From the NCBI RefSeq assembly GCF_003334335.1, contig NZ_QOWQ01000008.1: a DNA stretch of 64,000 bases; one strand, written 5' to 3'. Positions 48,348-51,634 of the stretch are shown one piece after another. This stretch comes from Escherichia coli (GTDB taxonomy: Bacteria; Pseudomonadota; Gammaproteobacteria; Enterobacterales; Enterobacteriaceae). Both the position numbers and the translations under genes were made by a program. A model generated the notes under the pieces. That model searched no databases, was not told the DNA's origin, and saw only the letters and a list, made by a program, of their open reading frames with translations. Positions within the stretch are counted from its first letter, which is position 1, and each line of letters starts with the position of its first letter.

Positions 48348-49586
48348 TTACTCACTGGAAACCAGTCGTGGCGTGATAAACACCACTAACTCGCGTCGTT
48401 CATCTTCTTTTCCGTCATGACGAAATAATTGCCCGAACCAGGGAATGTCGCCAAGCAACGGTACGCTATCCTGACCCGATTTATTTTTACGGGTAAAAAT
48501 GCCGCCCAGCGCCAACGTTTCTCCGCTTTTGACCTCGACCTGCGTTTCGATCTCCTGCTTATCAATCGCCAGCACTTCGCCATCGGCCTGCTGTAGCACC
48601 TGCCCCGGAACGTTCTGGCTGATGTGTAATTTCAGCCGGATGCGACCTTTTTGTAACACCGTGGGCGTGACCTCCATCCCCAGGACGGCCTCTTTAAATT
48701 CCACCGACGTCGCGCCACTTTCCCCGCTGGAAACCTGATATGGAATTTCGCTCCCCTGTTTAATGCTGGCAGGCTGAAGATGTGAGGCCAGCAGACGCGG
48801 ACTGGCGATAATATCCAGCTGCTGTTTTTGTTCGAGCGCGGAAAGCTCAAGATCCAGCAAGCGTCCGTTGATGCGCCCAATGTTAAAACCGACATGCGTT
48901 GTCGCCGTCGCTACGGAGAGGTCGCTACCAAGCGTGGTGACTTGCCCAACGCCACCAGCGTGTTGCGCATCGGCCAGCGTCCATTTCACGCCTAACTCAC
49001 GCAAACTTTTTTCATTAATGGTGACAATATGCGCCGACAGCTCAACCTGCCCGACCGGCAGATCCATTTGCGCTACCCACTGTTCAAGCGCGCTTAACGC
49101 CGTTTTGTTATCTCGTAGCAAAAGGCGATTGGTGCGTTTATCGACGGTCATACTCCCTTTGGCACTCAGTAGCTTCTCCCCCGCTTTCGCCAGTTCTCCC
49201 GCGTCGGCGTATTGCAGGGTTATACTGCGATTTTCCAGCGGCAGATTTGCCTGCGCCCGCGCCTGCTCCGCCTCCTGGCGGGCGATATTGTTATTCTGCC
49301 AGGCAATGGAATGCACTGAGAGAATGTTGCCTTCCTGCCGCGTTATCAGTCCGGCGCTTTTCACTACAGTTTGTAGTGCCTGCTTCCAGGGAACATCTGT
49401 TAGATGTAACGACACCGTACCGCTGACGTCTGGCGACACGACCAGGTTCAACTTCTCCTGTTCAGCCAGCGCCTGCAACACCTGAGCTACCGGAACGTCA
49501 TCCACCATCAGCGTCACTTTTTGCGGCTTTGCCGCCTGTACGCCGGGTATCAGCATCAACAGTAGTGCGGCTATCCATTGCTTCAT
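48348..49586 (-). CDS. hofQ: Outer-membrane secretin of the Hof DNA-uptake / type IV pilus-like system
   Basis: 412-aa ORF with signal peptide MKQWIAALLLMLIPGVQA and secretin C-terminal domain. Confidence 0.9.
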   Translation of the reverse strand: MKQWIAALLLMLIPGVQAAKPQKVTLMVDDVPVAQVLQALAEQEKLNLVVSPDVSGTVSLHLTDVPWKQALQTVVKSAGLITRQEGNILSVHSIAWQNNNIARQEAEQARAQANLPLENRSITLQYADAGELAKAGEKLLSAKGSMTVDKRTNRLLLRDNKTALSALEQWVAQMDLPVGQVELSAHIVTINEKSLRELGVKWTLADAQHAGGVGQVTTLGSDLSVATATTHVGFNIGRINGRLLDLELSALEQKQQLDIIASPRLLASHLQPASIKQGSEIPYQVSSGESGATSVEFKEAVLGMEVTPTVLQKGRIRLKLHISQNVPGQVLQQADGEVLAIDKQEIETQVEVKSGETLALGGIFTRKNKSGQDSVPLLGDIPWFGQLFRHDGKEDERRELVVFITPRLVSSE

Positions 49587-49902
49587 TTGTATCTCCTTGC
49601 CGTTGCCACAACCATTGTGGCGGTTCGCAGTTTGTCCCGGTACCCAGCGTTAGTACGTCTGGCGTCAGCTGTAAAATTGTCCAGCCGTTTTCCAGCACAT
49701 CGTTTTGCTGCACCCGTCGCCATTTCTTTTGCCCGTCTTTTATTACACCGATGATGCGCTCGCCTCGCCCTACCATCCCCTGATAGCGCCACTGGCTAAG
49801 TTCGCTAATCCGGCATAGATCTTCCGGCGGTTTAAAAGGGTCACGCATACCGGTTAAAAGGCACAATGCAATACCTGCCAACAACCAGCGTTTAACCCTC
49901 AT
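49498..49902 (-). CDS. hofP: Hof system component HofP
   Basis: ATG (complement cat 49900-49902) gives MRVKRWLLAGIALCLLTGMRDPFKPP (134 aa); 3' end overlaps hofQ 5' region by ~89 nt in a different frame. Confidence 0.8.
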   Translation of the reverse strand: MRVKRWLLAGIALCLLTGMRDPFKPPEDLCRISELSQWRYQGMVGRGERIIGVIKDGQKKWRRVQQNDVLENGWTILQLTPDVLTLGTGTNCEPPQWLWQRQGDTNEAMDSRTTVDADTRRTGGKAAKSDADGG

Positions 49903-50332
49903 GCGGCGTCTCCAGTTGTAGCGTGAACAAAAGATCATCACCTTCCACGCTTAACGAAAAACGGCTCACGCTGACGTTGCGCTCTGCCAGCCGTGTAAAT
50001 GCCGACGGCACTGCTTCCCACAGCGTTTTCAACGCCAACTCGCCTCCCTGCGCGGATGGATGCCAGGAAACCAGTTGCGCGCCGGATAACTGAAAATCCA
50101 GTGGCGAAAAGGGCAGCGTTTTTTCCTCGCTGAAGGGAGTGGTGTCTACCAGGCGATACAGTGCGGCCCACTGCTGGTGATGACTTGCCCGTAGTCGAAT
50201 TAATGCGTCGCGCTCTTCATGGTGTGTCGATGACAGAAAAATGAGCGTAACTAACATCAGCAACCAGAATGCCCAGCAAAGCTGGCGGAGGCGGGGTGAT
50301 GTGGCGAACCACCAGTCAAAGAACATGTTCAT
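49892..50332 (-). CDS. hofO: Hof system component HofO
   Basis: 146-aa ORF MNMFFDWWFATSPRLRQLCWAFWLLMLVTLIFL (single TM); overlaps hofN and hofP. Confidence 0.82.
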   Translation of the reverse strand: MNMFFDWWFATSPRLRQLCWAFWLLMLVTLIFLSSTHHEERDALIRLRASHHQQWAALYRLVDTTPFSEEKTLPFSPLDFQLSGAQLVSWHPSAQGGELALKTLWEAVPSAFTRLAERNVSVSRFSLSVEGDDLLFTLQLETPHEG

Positions 50333-50855
50333 CGCTAACCTTCCTTGTTAACTGATACTCAAATTGCCAGCGTCCCTGCGCATCCTGCTGCGTGGCTCCC
50401 CGCTGATTGAGATGAAAAGATGCATCCTGGCGGAGTGACGTTTCTAGTGCGTTTAACGCGGTAATGCTTGTTGTCAGCCCCTTGATCTCCAGCGTTCCCT
50501 GCTGCCAGCTTATCGTTGTCAGCCAGGCGTGCTCGGGTAAAAGCGCCGCCAGTGCTTCCAGCGCAGATTGCCAGTCGCGGGTAAATTGTCGCTGGCGCTG
50601 CCGTTGCGAACGCTGTTCGCGTAACTGCTGTTGCTCCAGCAAACGTGGCTTCGTTATCTGTAAGCTGCGGGCGAGTTGTTGTTCCGCCTGAAGCAAAACT
50701 GCGTCTATGCGCGCTTCGGCGCTGCCTGTCAGACGCAGTATTAGCGTTATCCCGACGGCCAGCAGCAGAGGCGCAACGAACATCAGCAACCAGAAACGCA
50801 GAAAAGCGGTCCGGCGTTGCTGTCGCCAGGGCAAAAAATTAATTGGCGGGTTCAT
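50316..50855 (-). CDS. hofN: Hof system component HofN (PilN-like)
   Basis: 179-aa ORF MNPPINFLPWRQQRRTAFLRFWLLMFVAPLLLAVG. Confidence 0.82.
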   Translation of the reverse strand: MNPPINFLPWRQQRRTAFLRFWLLMFVAPLLLAVGITLILRLTGSAEARIDAVLLQAEQQLARSLQITKPRLLEQQQLREQRSQRQRQRQFTRDWQSALEALAALLPEHAWLTTISWQQGTLEIKGLTTSITALNALETSLRQDASFHLNQRGATQQDAQGRWQFEYQLTRKVSDEHVL

Positions 50856-51634
50856 CAGTACGCCTTCCCAAGCGCCAGCCCCAGCGCGATGGCAAAGTCT
50901 CCACCTGGCGGCGGTAGCGGCGGCTGACGAACAGAAACGGCCTCCCAGGGATCAAATCCGCCTTCGCCACATATCGCGACGCTTTCGGGATCAACGGATA
51001 ACGCTGCCGCCAGCTCCTTCGCGCTAGTCATCCCCACCGCCAGTTTGCGCCCCCAGCTATAGCGCGTCGCCCACAGCCACTGTTCGTTATCACGCCAGGC
51101 CAGACATTGCTGATGAGAAGGTAAAAAAGGCAGGAATCGCTGTAATGCACTGGCATCCGGGGTGATCGCGCTCACATGAACACGCAACCTTTCTGCCAGA
51201 GTAAGCAGCGTTGCCAGCTCTTTGCTTTGCGCGGCAGTCACGTTATAGGCGGGACTGAGTGAGTCTTCGCTGTAATCGAAGCGCAGGGAGTCCGGATCCA
51301 TATCCAGCTCGCGGGCCATCGTCCCTGACAGCCAGGCCGTTTGCTCCCGCTCACCAAGGGACATCGACGGGCGCGGAAATGACCGCTGTAATGTGCGACT
51401 GGCGGGAAACGCCAACATAATGTGATGACGCTGCGGCAGTTCGCGACTCCACGGTAACAACGTTTTAGCCAGCTGCTGCGCATCAACAATCCGCCCATCT
51501 TTGATAATGTCGTTCTCCAGCGGCAAGCGCCACCAGCGTTGCAAAAAGCATTCTTTTGCGCCCCGCACGATCGCAACCGCTACCGCTTCTTGCTGTTGTA
51601 AATGCAAACCAATTTGCCAGATCTTAAATGCCAT
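50855..51634 (-). CDS. hofM: Hof system component HofM (PilM-like)
   Basis: ATG (complement cat 51632-51634) gives MAFKIWQIGLHLQQQEAVAVAIV (259 aa). Confidence 0.82.
   Translation of the reverse strand: MAFKIWQIGLHLQQQEAVAVAIVRGAKECFLQRWWRLPLENDIIKDGRIVDAQQLAKTLLPWSRELPQRHHIMLAFPASRTLQRSFPRPSMSLGEREQTAWLSGTMARELDMDPDSLRFDYSEDSLSPAYNVTAAQSKELATLLTLAERLRVHVSAITPDASALQRFLPFLPSHQQCLAWRDNEQWLWATRYSWGRKLAVGMTSAKELAAALSVDPESVAICGEGGFDPWEAVSVRQPPLPPPGGDFAIALGLALGKAY

Follow-up and report, generated by a model that had tools for sequence, protein, structure and literature searches.

The hofMNOPQ operon of Escherichia coli and its 89-nt hofP/hofQ overlap, an apparent side effect of frame geometry

INTRODUCTION

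The PilMNOPQ module of type IVa pili is described in Pseudomonas aeruginosa, Myxococcus xanthus, Thermus thermophilus and Neisseria. Within this module PilM binds ATP and the N-terminal peptide of PilN, and PilP is a lipoprotein. The corresponding genes of E. coli K-12 are hofMNOPQ (b3395-b3391; formerly yrfD-yrfC-yrfB-yrfA-hofQ). Sxy induces yrfD (hofM) 16-fold; the induction is cAMP-dependent and is lost in crp and cyaA backgrounds (PMC1635313). A hofQ::kan insertion abolishes Sxy-dependent transformation, and growth on DNA as a nutrient depends on the competence homologues (PMC3330819). The native hofM-hofQ fragment, when over-expressed, supports pilus assembly (bioRxiv 10.1101/856302). This literature describes an operon that normally stays silent until Sxy (TfoX), acting with cAMP-CRP at non-canonical CRP-S sites, turns it on.

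The operon has thus already been published, together with its regulation and phenotypes. Here we analysed the operon in a 64,000-nt stretch of an E. coli contig (NZ_QOWQ01000008.1, the window) and add its coordinates, the folds of its products, their conservation and purifying selection, and a null model for its longest gene overlap. The literature search found no paper discussing this overlap between hofP and hofQ.

RESULTS

Layout and intactness of the operon

Five minus-strand genes in the order hofM-N-O-P-Q occupy positions 48348-51634, an exact base-for-base match to K-12 (b3391-b3395) and to the RefSeq/PGAP annotation:

50855..51634, minus strand: hofM, cytoplasmic PilM-like actin-fold protein, 259 aa; annotated ATG at 51634
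50316..50855, minus strand: hofN, single-pass inner-membrane PilN-like protein, 179 aa
49892..50332, minus strand: hofO, single-pass inner-membrane protein, 146 aa
49498..49902, minus strand: hofP, PilP/GspC-HR-like periplasmic protein, 134 aa; annotated ATG at 49902
48348..49586, minus strand: hofQ, outer-membrane secretin, 412 aa; ATG start

Read directly, the junction overlaps are 1 nt (M/N), 17 nt (N/O), 11 nt (O/P) and 89 nt (P/Q, 49498-49586), and all of them, like the gene lengths, are identical in the RefSeq/PGAP and K-12 MG1655 annotations. The longest open reading frame listed for hofP begins at a GTG at 49941, upstream of its annotated ATG. The locus therefore has the five co-oriented genes, the M-N-O-P-Q order and the coupled junctions of a type IVa PilMNOPQ module. 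It differs from K-12 by two substitutions and no indels over 3.3 kb and matches several independent assemblies without a difference (100% identity); RefSeq E. coli records that carry the hofM-hofQ annotation likewise match the window at 100% identity. A sequencing frameshift in the hof genes was excluded, since the same sequence recurs in many independent assemblies.

A preliminary description, made from the sequence alone, had listed five overlapping minus-strand hof genes with all frames open. Their identities, order and strand were borne out by the open reading frame listing, the annotation and the profile and structure tests, and their open frames by the independent assemblies. The same description had placed the operon immediately upstream of aroK; a spacer lies between the two:

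47948..48347, minus strand: hofQ-aroK spacer, 400 nt, with terminator-like hairpins at 48331-48344 and 48189-48207 and a sigma-70-like promoter at 48057-48086 (consensus scans)

Matches in the promoter and terminator consensus scans occur at background frequency. Between 47400 and 52000 the only Rfam match at E<=1 is to asponA; its 14.7 bits (E=0.36) lie below the gathering score of 113, and we take it as chance. This locus is the known, normally silent hofMNOPQ operon of E. coli, which encodes a type IV pilus/DNA-uptake machinery.

The five Hof proteins

In structure tests HofM adopts the PilM fold, of the cytoplasmic actin-like (FtsA-like) type, in line with the PilM-like protein of the preliminary description, but by sequence it is barely detectable as a PilM. 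HofN matches Pfam PilN (PF05137, E=3.1e-9), while comparison with PDB sequences gave chance matches or none. Its N-terminus reads MNPPINFLPWR, which resembles the N-terminal motif of PilN. The sole family match of HofO is Pfam HofO (PF25319, 'EspM-like domain', E=2.2e-25), with neither a PilO profile match nor a PDB sequence match. Each of the two proteins carries one hydrophobic/transmembrane segment (residues 22-40 in HofN, 18-36 in HofO), in line with the two single-pass membrane proteins first proposed. NCBIfam contains no matching model for HofN, HofO or HofP. In our reading HofM is the cytoplasmic component, and HofN and HofO are bitopic inner-membrane proteins, of the alignment subcomplex.

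The structure test gave HofP a PilP-type beta-sandwich (HR) domain, the kind that binds the N0 domain of secretins, and periplasmic HofP of this PilP/GspC-HR type would dock on the N0 domain of HofQ. Among 51 species, no conserved cysteine was found in the N-terminal hydrophobic segment that could form a lipobox: Cys14 of the E. coli protein is not conserved (the consensus there is ...LLxGMRDPF), and the invariant cysteines are Cys30 and Cys92. In the absence of a lipobox cysteine, HofP would therefore work like PilP but be anchored or processed differently. The conserved core comprises residues 1-103; residues 104-134 form a tail that varies in sequence and length among relatives and is predicted to be disordered (pLDDT < 50).

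HofQ scores 855.2 bits over all of its residues (1-412/412) against NCBIfam NF007851 (DNA uptake porin HofQ; cut-off 598) and 449 bits against TIGR02515 PilQ (cut-off 284, E=1e-134), whereas its 194 bits against the GspD model fall below the cut-off of that model. Pfam recognizes STN, Secretin_N and Secretin domains, with no match to an AMIN domain. Residues 23-409 align to Vibrio cholerae PilQ (6W6M, E=2e-74), the homology beginning at residue 23, and HofQ of Aggregatibacter (2Y3M) is also matched. HofQ thus combines signal peptide features, N0 and N1 domains and a C-terminal secretin domain, as expected of a secretin. The initial proposal of a cryptic type IV pilus-like DNA uptake machinery agrees with these profile and structure tests and with published work (PMC1635313, PMC3330819).

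The hofP/hofQ overlap

The overlap, put at about 89 nt in a different frame in the preliminary description, is exactly 89 nt, and it is already present in the reference annotation:

49498..49586, minus strand: dual-coding segment, 89 nt; hofQ codons 1-30 (signal peptide and start of N0) over the last 29 hofP codons and the stop

An overlap of about 80-92 nt is common to most genera of Enterobacteriaceae. Among 78 species it measures 80-92 nt in 61, 62-77 nt in six and at least 98 nt in five; the others have 38 nt (three), 4 nt (two) or a premature hofP stop (one).

The frame relation accounts for such a length. Each hofP codon is made of the third base of one hofQ codon and the first and second bases of the next. 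In this frame the hydrophobic NTN codons of the hofQ signal peptide can never yield TAA, TAG or TGA. The hofP frame, which is unclosed before the hofQ ATG, therefore stays open through the signal-peptide codons, until a stop arises at the conserved Val-Asp-Asp of the HofQ N0 domain (GAT GAC, giving TGA). In a null model we kept the HofQ protein fixed and resampled synonymous codons at random. Only three codon junctions within the first 30 hofQ codons can make a stop in the hofP frame, and the simulated overlaps were 59 nt in 12%, 86 nt in 28%, 89 nt in 40% (the most frequent length) and longer in 20%. The median simulated overlap was 89 nt in most species. Given the HofQ sequence, the 89-nt overlap is no more than chance gives. 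It needs no special explanation and looks like a side effect of frame geometry, and the roughly 30-residue extension of HofP is most likely a disordered by-product that the protein tolerates.

An alternative is that the overlap is itself selected, either because the HofP tail is functional, for example in contacting HofQ or peptidoglycan, or because ribosomes on hofP run across the hofQ ribosome-binding site and so set the HofP:HofQ ratio or HofQ initiation. Retention of the overlap in most genera at deep divergence speaks for selection, although the null model already yields 89 nt as the commonest length. The share of species with overlaps of at least 60 nt is 94.5%, where codon resampling predicts 69%, the species not being independent. 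Within Escherichia, synonymous divergence at hofQ codons 2-29 is about one-third of the value for the remaining codons (pS 0.12 versus 0.37), a reduction that involves about 20 sites and non-independent comparisons. No such 5' dip is found in hofM, N, O or P, but aroK and aroB also have 5' synonymous dips. Of 70 species, 65 use GAT for HofQ Asp29, the codon that makes the hofP stop; however, third-position entropy at conserved overlap codons does not depart from the range seen elsewhere in hofQ. The tail itself argues against a function. Besides being predicted to be disordered and highly variable in sequence and length, it has dN well above dS in the hofP frame and evolves faster than the core. 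It is missing from two loci, L050 and L052, in which the overlap is 4 nt, and the overlap is reduced to 38 nt in three Phytobacter/Kosakonia species, the operons being otherwise intact in all five cases. The data thus hint weakly at some additional constraint here, and we consider selection for the overlap unlikely. If true, this would be a long gene overlap, both conserved and functional, in a model organism. Neutrality of the HofP tail is most likely.

Selection on the operon and its regulation

Compared with other Escherichia, dN/dS is 0.10 for hofM, 0.15 for hofN, 0.20 for hofO, 0.23 for hofP and 0.03 for hofQ (overall range given as 0.03-0.25). Values in this range identify live genes. 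The locus is present in all 5426 of 5426 complete E. coli genomes, with an identity of at least 96.9%. Both observations, together with the published hofQ-dependent phenotypes, run counter to the view that the operon is a decaying relic in E. coli whose open frames reflect a lack of time rather than function. That view draws on the poor or undetectable expression of the operon without artificial Sxy (PMC1635313) and on the disrupted copies: hofM carries a frameshift in O157-like strains and hofO carries one in NCTC9088, one strain has lost hofQ by deletion, in-frame stops interrupt both hofO and hofP of the E. albertii type strain, and the hof operon of C. koseri is degraded. We regard it as very improbable. 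The intactness first described therefore holds as the common state in E. coli and its relatives, but it is not universal.

The upstream region contains the following features:

51635..51753, no strand assigned: hofM-mrcA divergent intergenic region, 119 bp (sequence and cross-genus alignment)
51800..51821, minus strand: candidate proximal CRP-S site, TAAATCGAGCCTGCTCCCAGCA, inside the mrcA coding sequence; 3 mismatches to TGCGA-N6-TCGCA
51881..51902, minus strand: candidate distal CRP-S site, ATCTGCATCGGAATTTGCAGGC; 3 mismatches; about 247 nt upstream of the hofM ATG

The intergenic region holds the hofM Shine-Dalgarno sequence TAAGGAG and, on the minus strand, a promoter-like TTTATA-16-TATAAA. 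A conserved block spans 51691-51810. The preliminary description had suggested mapping the hofM promoter in the intergenic region, but the published hofM CRP-S fragment maps inside mrcA (51785-51910). The position of the distal candidate fits the '-246' stated in PMC1635313, and the two candidates lie at opposite ends of the published yrfD EMSA fragment. The proximal candidate is nearly invariant across genera. A strict search of the window for the CRP-S pattern (at most 2 mismatches) gave 35 matches against 47.5 expected by chance, none of them near hofM. The exact hofM promoter is inferred.

The start codon of hofQ

The preliminary description had flagged the hofQ start for checking. Two features define the annotated start at ATG 49586:

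49593..49598, minus strand: hofQ Shine-Dalgarno sequence AAGGAG, 6 nt before the ATG, inside hofP codons of the conserved ...QRQG motif; spacer to the ATG GGAGATTAAAATG
49530..49586, minus strand: hofQ signal-peptide codons, MKQWIAALLLMLIPGVQAA (from translation)

We surveyed 79 related loci, all from related enterobacterial species. A start codon stands at the equivalent position in 79/79 (72 ATG, 6 GTG and 1 TTG), an SD-like core precedes it in 78/79, and all 79 have K/R in residues 2-7 (a basic n-region) followed by a hydrophobic core, even though the peptide sequence diverges. Very long same-strand overlaps are frequently annotation errors, and the hofQ frame has an ATG at codon 27 (49508) and a GTG at codon 28 (49505), 6-11 nt before the hofP TGA ends, which would give an ordinary coupling overlap of that length; nevertheless, we reject such a downstream start as exceedingly improbable, since no SD-like sequence precedes these codons, Met27 is Val or Leu in most relatives, a HofQ begun there would have no signal peptide although a secretin must cross the inner membrane, and the upstream features are so widely conserved. 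On these sequence features the annotated hofQ start at 49586 is judged correct. HofQ would thus be translated from its own strong Shine-Dalgarno sequence within hofP and carry a Sec signal peptide.

DISCUSSION

Taken together, the locus is very probably best read as an operon for the alignment subcomplex and secretin of a type IVa pilus/DNA-uptake machine, in which hofQ starts at ATG 49586 with its own Shine-Dalgarno sequence and the HofP tail is a tolerated by-product. The useful outcome is a negative one: the long hofP/hofQ overlap is neither an annotation error nor in need of a special mechanism. It provides a clean example of a signal-peptide coding region that is 'stop-proof' in one alternative frame. 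Because such codons are stop-proof, an upstream gene that misses its own stop must extend about 60-90 nt. This rule may aid curators in judging other long overlaps upstream of secreted proteins.

Compared with hofMNOPQ of E. coli K-12, the operon has the same genes, lengths and four overlaps, including that of 89 nt, and the two nucleotides that differ over 3.3 kb make no difference of substance; the source strain of the window is K-12-like or a close relative. With the type IVa PilMNOPQ systems it shares the M-N-O-P-Q gene order, the PilM fold of HofM, the PilN domain and bitopic topology of HofN, the PilP-type beta-sandwich of HofP and the N0, N1 and secretin domains of HofQ. There are also differences. 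HofM falls about 80-100 residues short of PilM in length, a lipobox cysteine is not conserved in HofP, unlike in the lipoprotein PilP, and HofO matches its own Pfam family only. HofQ has no N-terminal AMIN region; its alignment begins at residue 158 in V. cholerae PilQ and at residue 322 in Neisseria PilQ.

The comABCDE genes of Haemophilus influenzae offer a further comparison, as yrfD is treated as the orthologue of comA and is under the same CRP-S/Sxy control (PMC1635313). In E. coli, natural induction of sxy is not seen, and natural chromosomal transformation is undetectable unless engineered help is given (PMC3330819). Among secretins of competence pili, HofQ is closest to V. cholerae PilQ, and HofQ of Aggregatibacter also matches. 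Relative to the GspC-GspD pair of type II secretion, the gene content of the hof operon is instead of the type IV pilus kind, and so is the subtype of its secretin, since HofQ scores above the cut-off of the PilQ model and below that of GspD.

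Gene organization of the hofMNOPQ operon

An ORF table drawn up for 45500-55000 placed five genes on the minus strand, with aroK-aroB-damX downstream and the divergent mrcA upstream:

48348-49586, minus strand: hofQ, 412 aa
49498-49902, minus strand: hofP, 134 aa, counted from the annotated ATG
49892-50332, minus strand: hofO, 146 aa
50316-50855, minus strand: hofN, 179 aa
50855-51634, minus strand: hofM, 259 aa

By direct reading of the sequence, the overlaps at the M/N, N/O, O/P and P/Q junctions are 1, 17, 11 and 89 nt. Gene lengths and junctions are the same in an identical strain annotated by PGAP and in K-12 MG1655 (b3391-b3395), from which the window operon differs by two substitutions and no indels. 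The preliminary description of five minus-strand genes is thus borne out to the base. It had also put the genes immediately upstream of aroK-aroB on the same strand; order and strand are right, but hofQ and aroK are separated by a 400-nt spacer that contains promoter-like and terminator-like sites.

Translation start of hofQ and origin of the hofP/hofQ overlap

The start of hofQ had been marked as worth checking. The junction reads, on the minus strand, ...CAACGGCAAGGAGATACAAATGAAGCAATGG..., with a perfect AAGGAG 6 nt ahead of the hofQ ATG at 49586. The HofQ N-terminus, MKQWIAALLLMLIPGVQAAKPQ, is a typical signal peptide, and the homology of solved PilQ structures to HofQ begins only at residue 23. 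The locus was taken from 80 Enterobacteriaceae species, and 79 loci could be scored for the hofQ start. A start codon is found at the equivalent position in all 79 (72 ATG, 6 GTG and 1 TTG), a Shine-Dalgarno-like core precedes it in 78, and the basic n-region and hydrophobic core of the signal peptide are kept in 79/79 although its sequence varies widely among loci. On the evidence of the Shine-Dalgarno sequence, the signal peptide and this conservation, the annotated start is correct. Initiation at ATG codon 27 or GTG codon 28, near the hofP stop, was considered and rejected: there is no Shine-Dalgarno sequence there, Met is not conserved among relatives, and such a start would delete the signal peptide, which a secretin needs.

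The 89-nt overlap in different frames, also claimed at the outset, was confirmed by direct reading and is the same in the PGAP and K-12 annotations. The hofP frame continues ...CAA GGA GAT ACA AAT GAA GCA ATG GAT ... GGT GGA TGA, and its stop is unambiguous. Of 78 species surveyed, 61 have an overlap of 80-92 nt; it is shorter in eleven, measuring 62-77 nt in six, 38 nt in three and 4 nt in two, and longer (98-140 nt) in five. In the one other species a premature stop cuts hofP short. A long overlap is common to Escherichia, Salmonella, Citrobacter, Enterobacter, Klebsiella, Kluyvera, Lelliottia and others; since it measures 80-92 nt in 61/78 species, it is ancient.

Inside the overlap, each hofP codon combines the third base of a hofQ codon with the first two of the next; a stop in the hofP frame can arise only where T closes one hofQ codon and the next begins AA, AG or GA. 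Because codons for hydrophobic residues never begin in this way, the hofP frame stays open through the signal-peptide codons. Within codons 1-30 of the window hofQ, stops are possible only at Ala19/Lys20, Val28/Asp29 and Asp29/Asp30, and the actual stop is made by GAT GAC in the conserved Val-Asp-Asp that opens the N0 secretin domain. When the HofQ protein was held fixed and synonymous codons were resampled using local codon usage, the resulting overlap was 59 nt in 12% of simulations, 86 nt in 28%, 89 nt in 40% and longer in 20%. Across species the median simulated overlap was 89 nt in most, and simulations reached or exceeded the observed overlap in 55% on average. Once hofP in this frame misses a stop ahead of the hofQ ATG, the overlap cannot be shorter than 59 nt, and 89 nt is its likeliest length. 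Frame geometry accounts for the long overlap.

In the HofP alignment the conserved core ends CEPxxWxWxR(Q/E)G, the final codons of which are the hofQ Shine-Dalgarno sequence, and the tail beyond it varies in sequence and length. We regard the tail and the overlap as mostly a passive by-product. That real selection acts on the overlap is unlikely. Overlaps of at least 60 nt were observed in 94.5% of species versus 69% under the null model, in a comparison where species are non-independent and context effects are ignored. Within Escherichia, hofQ codons 2-29 show roughly one third of the synonymous divergence seen across the remaining codons (0.12 versus 0.37; about 20 sites, five non-independent comparisons); hofM, N, O and P have no such 5′ dip, but aroK and aroB do. 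The Asp29 codon is GAT in 65/70 species, whereas the other conserved codons of the overlap have a third-position entropy inside the range of the remaining hofQ. The HofP tail itself is predicted to be disordered, is poorly conserved and evolves faster than the core in the hofP frame, with dN well above dS, as would follow if the sequence were set by hofQ alone. It is missing from two loci, L050 and L052 (4-nt ATGA junction), and three Phytobacter/Kosakonia species have a short version of it. Apart from this, L052 and these three species keep all five genes intact, while L050 is a 2.9-kb contig with hofM absent and hofN cut.

Region upstream of hofM

The 119-bp hofM-mrcA spacer (51635-51753) carries the hofM Shine-Dalgarno sequence and a minus-strand TTTATA-16-TATAAA match. 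No match with ≤2 mismatches to CRP-S, the non-canonical CRP site type used with Sxy, was found near hofM. The primers of the published yrfD (hofM) promoter EMSA map to 51785-51910, wholly within mrcA, and the study places two CRP-S sites at the fragment ends, one at -246 (PMC1635313). Two candidates fit this description in position:

51800-51821: candidate CRP-S site, 3 mismatches
51881-51902: candidate CRP-S site, 3 mismatches

A weak Rfam match to asponA ('anti ponA RNA') at 51883-51908 on the minus strand (14.7 bits versus a gathering score of 113, E = 0.36) is antisense to mrcA (ponA), coincides with the distal candidate and is most likely due to chance.

A block of ∼120 nt at 51691-51810, covering mrcA codons 1-23 and most of the intergenic region, has 90-97% nucleotide identity in 76 species, compared with 75-88% for mrcA coding sequence further in and 46-69% for hofM. 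Third codon positions of mrcA are conserved at 89% in codons 1-23 versus 55% in codons 24-149. This pattern suggests dense, overlapping regulatory sequence common to both divergent genes, possibly the hofM CRP-S promoter and an mrcA promoter or leader. The block matched no Rfam family. An ATG at 51730 inside the block, from which the mrcA frame is also open (858 aa), precedes the annotated GTG at 51754 (850 aa) by 8 codons.

Conservation, decay and expression

Megablast with 48200-51800 as the query matched the operon region in 5426/5426 complete E. coli genomes; several matches were 100% identical, all annotated hofM to hofQ. The matching places number 5429, one genome having two and one place being on a plasmid-class record. 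The operon is intact as a rule, with exceptions. In a spread set of 40 E. coli genomes, the match was 1 nt shorter than the query in three O157-like strains (NZRM3614, locus L083, and genome matches H37 and H39), and the one whose annotation was read, NZRM3614, carries an annotated hofM frameshift. The annotated hofO frameshift in NCTC9088 (L084) might be an assembly error. In CNR20180903 (L085) a junction to barA has taken the place of most of hofQ and the aroK side. The type strain of E. albertii, NBRC 107761 (L005, 3255-4089), has in-frame stops that cut hofO (3464) and hofP (3786), and in C. koseri NCTC10786 (L040) the locus is degraded, with hofM and hofN truncated and no equivalent hofQ start placeable. 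To judge from these sequences, the latter two cases look like independent operon decay in relatives.

Nei-Gojobori comparison of the window operon with five other Escherichia species gave dN/dS of ∼0.10, 0.15, 0.20, 0.23 and 0.03 for hofM, N, O, P and Q, values that indicate that all five are under purifying selection. HofM, N, O and P (49892-51634) diverge much faster than HofQ (48348-49586) in Enterobacteriaceae: between E. coli and non-Escherichia genera they are 31-68% identical, versus 67-88% for HofQ. Even inside Escherichia, identity is only 75-94% for HofN and HofO, compared with 97-98% for HofQ.

Expression of yrfD is poor or undetectable without Sxy induction and is induced 16-fold by Sxy with strict dependence on CRP and cAMP (PMC1635313). 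A hofQ::kan mutant of a recombineering strain loses Sxy-dependent transformation, and competence-gene homologues are required for growth on DNA (PMC3330819). The native hofM-hofQ fragment, over-expressed together with the other hof, ppd and gspO genes, supports pilus assembly (bioRxiv 10.1101/856302). Given the purifying selection, with which these phenotypes agree, the five genes are alive.

Comparison with PilMNOPQ systems

The hofMNOPQ system is already known and annotated, and the preliminary interpretation of the operon is supported; the outcome here is that the hofQ start is right and that the long overlap reflects frame geometry. With the NCBIfam HofQ model, whose cut-off is 598, HofQ reaches 855 bits, and with the PilQ subfamily model 449 bits. 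It contains STN, Secretin_N and Secretin domains and aligns over residues 23-409 with the V. cholerae competence-pilus secretin 6W6M (E = 2e-74). HofN combines a PilN domain (E = 3e-9) with one transmembrane segment; HofO also has one such segment, and its sole match is the HofO Pfam family. An invariant RDPF motif follows the N-terminal hydrophobic segment of HofP in 51 species (alignment A1). These domain, profile and alignment matches bear out the PilMNOPQ-like reading, and the system departs from the classical one in three respects. HofM is shorter than PilM, and HofQ lacks the AMIN region. HofP, in contrast to the lipoprotein PilP, lacks a conserved lipobox cysteine but has two other cysteines, Cys30 and Cys92, that are invariant across the same 51 species and probably form a periplasmic disulfide.
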